A DNA stretch of 64,000 nt from Escherichia coli. Its GTDB lineage: Bacteria; Pseudomonadota; Gammaproteobacteria; Enterobacterales; Enterobacteriaceae. A program made the position numbers and the translations under genes. Of this stretch, positions 15,270-15,598 are shown piece after piece (within the stretch, counting starts at the first letter, position 1; the number at the start of each line of letters is the position of its first letter). Below the pieces are notes generated by a model that was not told the DNA's origin, made no database searches, and was given only the letters and a program-made list of their open reading frames with translations. The stretch lies in assembly GCF_003334385.1 (NCBI RefSeq), contig NZ_QOWN01000004.1; one strand, 5' to 3'.

Positions 15270-15598
15270 TAAATACGCATCAGGTATACACCGCAGCGCC
15301 TGATGCGACGCTGTTGTGTCTTATCAGGCCTACGAGTTCAGTGCTGTGTGTAGGTCGGATAAGGCGCTCACGCCGCATCCGACAATAACAGCATTGCCTG
15401 ATGCGACGCTGCCGCGTCTTATCAGGCCTACGAGTTCGGTGCTGTGTAGGTCGGATAAGGCGTTCATGCCGCATCCGACAATAACAGCATTGCCTGATGC
15501 GACGCTTGCGCGTCTTATCAGGCCTACGAGTTCAGTGCTGTGTAGGTCGGATAAGGCGTTCACGCCGCATCCGGCAATAACAGCCTTGCCTGACGCAA
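15270..15598. repeat. Tandem BIME/REP array, about 3 copies of a ~100-bp unit (GCCTGATGCGACGCT...CTTATCAGGCCTAC / GTAGGTCGGATAAGGCG...CCGCATCCGACA)
   Basis: Near-identical units repeat at ~15290, ~15395 and ~15495 in the holC-pepA intergenic region; no unique spacers and no cas genes. Confidence 0.7.

Follow-up and report, generated by a model that had tools for sequence, protein, structure and literature searches.

A tandem Y/Z2 REP array in the pepA-holC spacer of Escherichia coli and its assignment to BIME-2

The pepA-holC locus and the parts of the array

Three genes follow one another on the minus strand of the window, by which we mean the whole 64,000-nucleotide stretch of Escherichia coli DNA that was analysed: pepA, encoding leucyl aminopeptidase (15599-17110; a 503-aa ORF with its stop codon at 15599-15601), holC, encoding DNA polymerase III chi (14802-15245; a 147-aa ORF), and valS (11947-14802; a 951-aa ORF), the stop codon of holC overlapping the start of valS at 14802. 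These gene names were taken from the RefSeq annotation of E. coli genomes nearly identical to the window; in a megablast search of 5,426 complete genomes of the species, identities reached 99.9%. The pepA stop and the holC start are separated by a spacer of 353 bp, which is mostly taken up by a tandem array. The array is extragenic, being confined to the interval bounded by the stop of pepA (15599) and the start of holC (15245), and in the sense of transcription it is positioned 3′ of pepA and 5′ of holC-valS. No REP or repeat features are annotated at the pepA-holC locus in the NC_000913.3 record, and a literature search combining holC, pepA, valS and REP found nothing relevant.

The array was reported by Tandem Repeats Finder as a single one at 15298-15593, with a period of 96, 3.1 copies, 93% matches, 1% indels and a score of 504. 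A repeat search at the array gave in-register copy spacings of 98, 96 and 96 bp, and the units, which are 96-98 bp long, are identical to one another at 89-90 of 96-98 positions in pairwise comparison. The preliminary description had named the genes, placed three units of the REP/BIME family between them and given the span as 15270-15598 (329 bp), all of which proved correct, the span being made up of the array and, on either side, a truncated REP arm (15270-15297 on the left, 15588-15598 on the right). Its figure of about 100 bp for the tandem units has to be replaced by 96-98 bp.

Read along the plus strand, with the linkers parsed from the sequence, the left edge (15270-15297) consists of a truncated REP arm, CGCATCAGG (15277-15285), and then a degenerate linker of l-like type. 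This edge is touched by a weak partial Rfam naRNA4 match (15283-15330, 27.4 bits) and is also present in E. albertii, E. whittamii and L019, a species representative deposited as E. coli. The first unit opens with Z2 REP copy a (15298-15333; GTAG foot reading on the minus strand), which is 34/37 identical to the published Z-type REP and is joined through a tail-to-tail linker of 16 nt, GAGTTCAGTGCTGTGT (15334-15349), to Y REP copy a (15350-15383; GTAG foot reading on the plus strand), 31/35 identical to the published Y REP. This linker has two extra bases, which is why the first unit measures 98 bp. In Y-a, a locus-specific compensated stem pair, T-A, replaces C-G. The head-to-head linker of 12 nt that follows, AATAACAGCATT (15384-15395), aligns at the position of the 'l' linker of Rfam naRNA4, the similarity in sequence being small.

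The second unit is formed by Z2 copy b (15396-15431; minus; 36/37), which forms part of a naRNA4 match at 15353-15428, a tail-to-tail linker of 14 nt, GAGTTCGGTGCTGT (15432-15445), Y copy b (15446-15479; plus; 31/35), which forms part of a second naRNA4 match at 15449-15524, and the same 12-nt head-to-head linker as in the first unit (15480-15491). In the third unit, Z2 copy c (15492-15527; minus; 36/37) equals the Z2 motif of REP325/naRNA4 exactly, and it is followed by the 14-nt linker GAGTTCAGTGCTGT (15528-15541), Y copy c (15542-15575; plus; 33/35) and a head-to-head linker of 12 nt, AATAACAGCCTT (15576-15587). The right edge, GCCTGACGCAA (15588-15598), is the truncated 5′ arm of a further Z2 REP; it abuts the pepA stop and makes up the 0.1 extra copy of the array. 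The array is thereby bracketed by two inverted truncated REP arms, CGCATCAGG on the left and CCTGACGC (15589-15596) on the right. When the fold of the read-through RNA is predicted, these arms pair with each other around the whole array. They may be what is left of an older single REP, or a side effect of the way in which the array was assembled.

Elsewhere in the window there is a tRNA-Leu(CAA) gene (22525-22609), regarded here as leuX, after which come an integrase-sized ORF (22796-24040) and a genomic island, the two together at 22796-45715. Eight large ORFs at 28203-45715 gave full-length PADLOC matches to DpdE, F, G, H, I, J, K and D (E = 0 for most), and on these matches the region is identified as a Dpd 7-deazaguanine DNA-modification defence cluster. 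On the plus strand, Rfam domains of a group II intron (D1-D4 at 57441-57728 and the catalytic domain at 59167-59238) flank a 306-aa ORF (58242-59162), and 57441-59238 presumably represents a mobile group II intron whose intron-encoded protein is short or truncated. A strong Rfam match (175 bits) to Ysr276, a Yersinia 'antisense sRNA', lies at 16358-16552 (plus), entirely within and antisense to the coding sequence of pepA, and probably reflects conserved pepA sequence, not an independent gene.

Assignment of the array and its variation between strains and species

With up to one mismatch allowed, the REP core GCCKGATGCGRCG occurs seven times in the 64-kb window against 0.45 expected, and five of the seven occurrences are inside the array, which chance cannot account for; Y-b, the remaining REP of the array, differs from the core at two positions and so escaped this search. 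The two other matches in the window are a Y-type core at 1666-1678 and a one-mismatch Y-type core at 52636-52648. A Z-type foot at 1725-1735, on the strand opposite to the Y-type core at 1666-1678, suggests another small BIME.

Imperfect palindromes of 20-40 nt that match the Y or Z consensus count as REPs. Alignment to the REP consensus, proposed beforehand as the check on the repeat family, was made with the reference E. coli sequences printed in PMC11208160, and it identifies six REPs, with 34-36 of 37 positions identical in the Z copies and 31-33 of 35 in the Y copies. A conserved GTAG tetranucleotide 5′ of the stem foot is a feature of REPs (PMC3333891), and here each Y begins with GTAGG on the plus strand and each Z2 has GGCCTAC at its end (GTAGGCC when read on the minus strand). 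The order of the REPs is Z2-Y-Z2-Y-Z2-Y, with Y and Z2 inverse to each other and placed tail to tail across a linker of 14-16 nt. The Z copies were assigned to Z2 through their match to the REP325 motif labelled Z2 in PMC4550694, by which Z1 is excluded only indirectly.

By the definition in PMC3333891, a BIME-2 is made of z2 and y REPs repeated several times in tandem; the linker is the short S type, and the flanking motif is s, l or r. The array agrees with this definition in its alternating inverse Y and Z2 REPs, its short tail-to-tail linker and its multiple tandem copies, the number of which varies between strains; its 12-nt head-to-head motif resembles the 'l' linker of REP325 in length only. 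Two other classes of repeat were rejected. A BIME-1 does not agree with the short linker and with the absence of the IHF consensus WATCARNNNNTTR, for which no match was found in 15246-15598, and a CRISPR-like array does not agree with would-be spacers that are identical in sequence in every unit. We are therefore highly confident that 15270-15598 is a BIME-2, consisting of three tandem units of alternating inverse Z2/Y REP hairpins in the non-coding spacer between pepA and holC.

Each Z2 copy of the array carries the 11-mer ATCAGGCCTAC (at 15323, 15421 and 15517), which is a natural target of IS621 (PMC11208160). In isolate CUVET20-416, IS621, an IS110-family bridge-RNA recombinase element, has inserted in Z2-a at ATCAGGCCT|...|CTAC (positions 3297-4833 of locus L005). 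The array thus offers three natural targets for the IS621 bridge recombinase, one of which is occupied in a sequenced isolate. A fourth copy of the 11-mer is found in the window at 1725, on the other strand.

The comparison of unit number across strains, which had likewise been proposed beforehand, was made with a 640-nt query of the two flanks only, and 59 intact loci were taken at even ranking steps from the 5,426 complete genomes. Three units are present in 25 of the 59 genomes (locus span 969-971 bp), two units in 13 (871-876 bp) and a single unit in five, four of which are K-12 (775-777 bp), while the remaining 16 (748-749 bp) carry an unrelated allele of 133 bp. The comparison therefore yields one, two or three units in E. 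coli and four in one related Escherichia deposited under that name, and it also showed that roughly one E. coli genome in four has the non-REP allele. Copy number follows lineage in the sample, all four O157:H7 genomes having three units and all four K-12 genomes one.

In the representative alleles whose sequences were compared (locus spans of 969, 873 and 775 bp for the unit-bearing ones), the number of units changes by gain, loss and conversion of whole units, the alleles being mosaics of the same unit variants. Z2-a is joined to Y-c in the K-12 allele, the stretch from Y-a through Z2-b is missing from the 2-unit allele, and in one 3-unit allele unit b is replaced by a duplicate of unit a. 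By analogy with the family, unequal recombination or slippage during replication, acting between the 96-bp direct repeats, would have made the array grow and shrink. Cleavage and rejoining at the iREP and linker sites by TnpA-REP, the REP-associated tyrosine transposase, would be an alternative route to a change in unit number; these activities of TnpA-REP have been demonstrated in vitro, and copy-number variation between strains has been described (PMC3333891).

The 41-mer centred on the tail-to-tail linker of copy c was found in 3,833 of the 5,426 E. coli genomes, at 1-4 places in each, and all the matches that were checked lie at pepA-holC. This linker sequence appears to be specific to the locus.

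The 133-bp allele contains no REP and has the palindrome CCCTCTCCC...GGGAGAGGGTTAGGGTGAGGG in place of the array; it occurs in 1,401 of the 5,426 genomes (~26%). It was seen in E. coli ABWA45 (positions 397-529 of locus L002), with a CCCTCTCCCTTAGGGAGAGGGTTAGGGTGAGGG palindrome, and also in the sampled O111 and O104:H4 genomes. Towards holC its breakpoint comes directly after TTTAAATA, and towards pepA it precedes ACGCAA. A dispersed repeat was considered for this allele and rejected at the sensitivity of megablast, the allele being single-copy in each genome and only its 50-bp palindromic core having a rare second match. Since about 26% of E. coli do not have the array and K-12 has one unit, neither a particular copy number nor the element itself is required at the site. 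Unit number is specific to lineages (three in O157:H7, one in K-12, the non-REP allele in O111/O104:H4) and could serve as a minor typing marker.

Variation in unit number also bears on the idea that the repeats encode protein. ORFs of 99 aa (15316-15615, plus) and of 77 and 64 aa (both minus) do cross the array, and they exist mechanically, as REP palindromes read in frame. They lengthen, shorten or vanish with the number of units, are absent from the 133-bp allele, and correspond to no CDS annotated in the spacer in any RefSeq genome inspected. On these three grounds (annotation, dependence on unit number and palindromes in frame) the coding reading was rejected, and we give it practically no chance of being correct.

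Beyond E. coli, a degenerate pattern for the PepA C-terminus, searched against one genome per species, retrieved 82 loci, nearly all of them from Enterobacteriaceae, and holC follows pepA at a distance of 66-455 bp in 73 of these. Four Escherichia species representatives have a Y/Z2 array whose edges are the same and whose linkers are closely similar, with four units in L019, three in E. albertii, two in E. whittamii and one in Escherichia sp. MOD1-EC7003. Among the 73 pepA-holC spacers the Y/Z2 array is absent from other genera. Its being common to the four Escherichia species representatives suggests that it predates their divergence.

The spacers of Citrobacter, Klebsiella indica, Leclercia, Kluyvera and Trabulsiella contain a REP or REP pair of their own. 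An element of ~125 bp, judged from the ERIC consensus to be ERIC-like, is found in the spacers of Salmonella arizonae, C. youngae, C. amalonaticus, Intestinirhabdus and Kosakonia. A CCCTCTCCC/GGGAGAGGG palindrome, arrayed in tandem, occupies the same site in Pseudocitrobacter faecalis (L016), and its motif is similar to that of the 133-bp allele. A REP foot of the form GGYCTAC or GTAGRCC is found in 42 of the 73 spacers. Across the Enterobacteriaceae, small repeats of different families have landed in the pepA-holC spacer time and again. The block adjoining holC, ATATGGGGCTTCTTGTGGTGGATTTAAAT, is conserved up to the start of the repeat in most genera; in species with the ERIC-like element it is replaced right up to the holC start codon.

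Hairpins, transcription signals and proposed roles

The transcript of the spacer on the minus strand, which is the sense of pepA, folds at -162.8 kcal/mol compared to -112.9 +/- 5.1 for shuffled sequences (z = -9.8). An alignment of 13 distinct Y-linker-Z2 units (those of the window, of REP325 and of other Escherichia alleles) contains two hairpins with 24 consensus pairs. One of these pairs is compensated, being U-A in eight units at the pepA-holC locus and C-G in four REP325 units, with a U-G intermediate in one; the other consensus pairs either do not vary or have no more than one wobble or break. This pattern is consistent with maintenance of the hairpins, weakly so as there is little variation among the aligned units.

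No intrinsic terminator-like site was found after pepA, which is followed by no T-run terminator, and a scan for sigma-70 promoter-like sites gave none between the array and holC. On the minus strand the closest promoter candidate is located inside holC (14929-14900). The functions attributed to the family include those of a terminator, an mRNA stabiliser, a supercoiling insulator, a binding site for Pol I, IHF or gyrase, and a target for insertion sequences (PMC3333891), and the affinity of gyrase is higher for BIME-2 than for BIME-1 (PMC1475751). By extension from the family, the six stable hairpins in the pepA transcript would form a barrier to 3′-exonucleases that shields its 3′ end, and they could act as a partial attenuator of read-through into holC-valS. 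As DNA, the BIME-2 would be a preferred site for binding and cleavage by DNA gyrase. For the array itself we infer these roles, in 3′-end protection or attenuation of read-through and in gyrase binding, from its membership of the family.

A stronger proposal is that the allelic state (1-3 units, 4 in L019, or the 133-bp allele) sets the level of pepA read-through into the essential holC-valS genes, or the local activity of gyrase. If true, the lineage-specific copy number would be a heritable polymorphism in expression and not neutral drift of a repeat. We regard this proposal as improbable.

A role in the translation of pepA has also to be weighed, in which the array would lower translation by stalling terminating ribosomes, a mechanism for REPs near a stop codon that was reportedly put forward by Liang, Rudd and Deutscher in 2015. 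The array does start directly after the pepA stop codon, and translation can be lowered by REPs that lie less than 16 nt away from a stop codon (summarised in PMC12306157). However, what adjoins the stop is only an 11-nt truncated arm, and the first complete REP stem starts 23 nt past it, beyond the limit of 15 nt, which makes this role very improbable.

The array could, in another reading, be a set of genes for nucleoid-associated non-coding RNAs. In K-12, naRNA4 is one Y-l-Z2 unit of REP325 and is proposed to act with HU in nucleoid condensation (PMC4550694). By analogy, the units at pepA-holC would encode naRNA4-like RNAs that bind HU, bridge cruciforms and condense the chromosome. Two matches to Rfam RF02564 (naRNA4) on the plus strand, at 15449-15524 (82.2 bits) and 15353-15428 (77.9 bits), exceed the gathering threshold of 59.5 bits, the two-hairpin Y-linker-Z2 layout is the one described in PMC4550694, and most REPs are transcribed according to the same source. 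However, the matches above the threshold are confined to the plus strand, while pepA, holC and valS are all on the minus strand, where the scores (55.7 and 51.9 bits) stay below 59.5. Upstream of the array there is no plus-strand promoter-like site, the sole one in 14700-17500 being downstream of it (17132-17160). In REP325, moreover, the sense of the naRNA is that of the upstream gene yjdM, and the orientation at pepA-holC is the opposite. The linker differs from that of naRNA4, and RF02564 in effect models a BIME-2 unit, so that a match denotes family resemblance and not function. Because of the antisense orientation and the lack of an upstream plus-strand promoter-like site, the naRNA4 match is read here as such a resemblance and not as an sRNA gene, and the array as a BIME-2; a set of naRNA4-like genes is decidedly improbable. 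Arrays of this kind trigger Rfam naRNA4 matches as well as spurious ORFs, and annotators should not over-read either.

Comparison with known REP systems

Compared to BIME-1 (Y-L-Z1 with an IHF site), the array shares the arrangement of REPs in inverted pairs. BIME-1 is single-copy and has a long linker with an IHF site, whereas the pepA-holC array has three tandem copies, a linker of 14-16 nt and no IHF consensus.

The closest comparison in K-12 is with REP325 (PMC4550694; RF02564), situated between yjdM and yjdN, which has 5.8 copies of a 100-bp unit with 96% identity and no indels. Both loci share the two-hairpin Y-linker-Z2 unit, an identical Z2 sequence and a tandem array downstream of a gene. 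They differ in their linkers and in size, with 5.8 units of 100 bp in REP325 and 3.1 units of 96 bp at pepA-holC, and, given the opposite orientation to the upstream gene, the read-through RNA at pepA-holC is the complement of the naRNA4 sense. REP325 is therefore both longer and more regular than the pepA-holC array, and the view that the latter is unusually regular is unsupported; tandem BIME-2 copies at one locus are in general well conserved (PMC3333891). The low priority originally assigned to the array was appropriate.

The array is real but ordinary, and what it displays is known biology, including the inter-strain variation in copy number and the targeting by IS621 that have been described for the family. 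With the BIME-2 elements of E. coli (Gilson/Bachellier, summarised in PMC3333891) it shares alternating inverted Y and Z2 REPs, a short tail-to-tail linker and tandem copies, as well as an extragenic site, a GTAG foot for each REP, well-conserved copies and a number of copies that varies between strains. There is no essential difference between them, the particular features at pepA-holC being linkers that appear to be specific to the locus and a Y REP with a compensated T-A pair in place of C-G.
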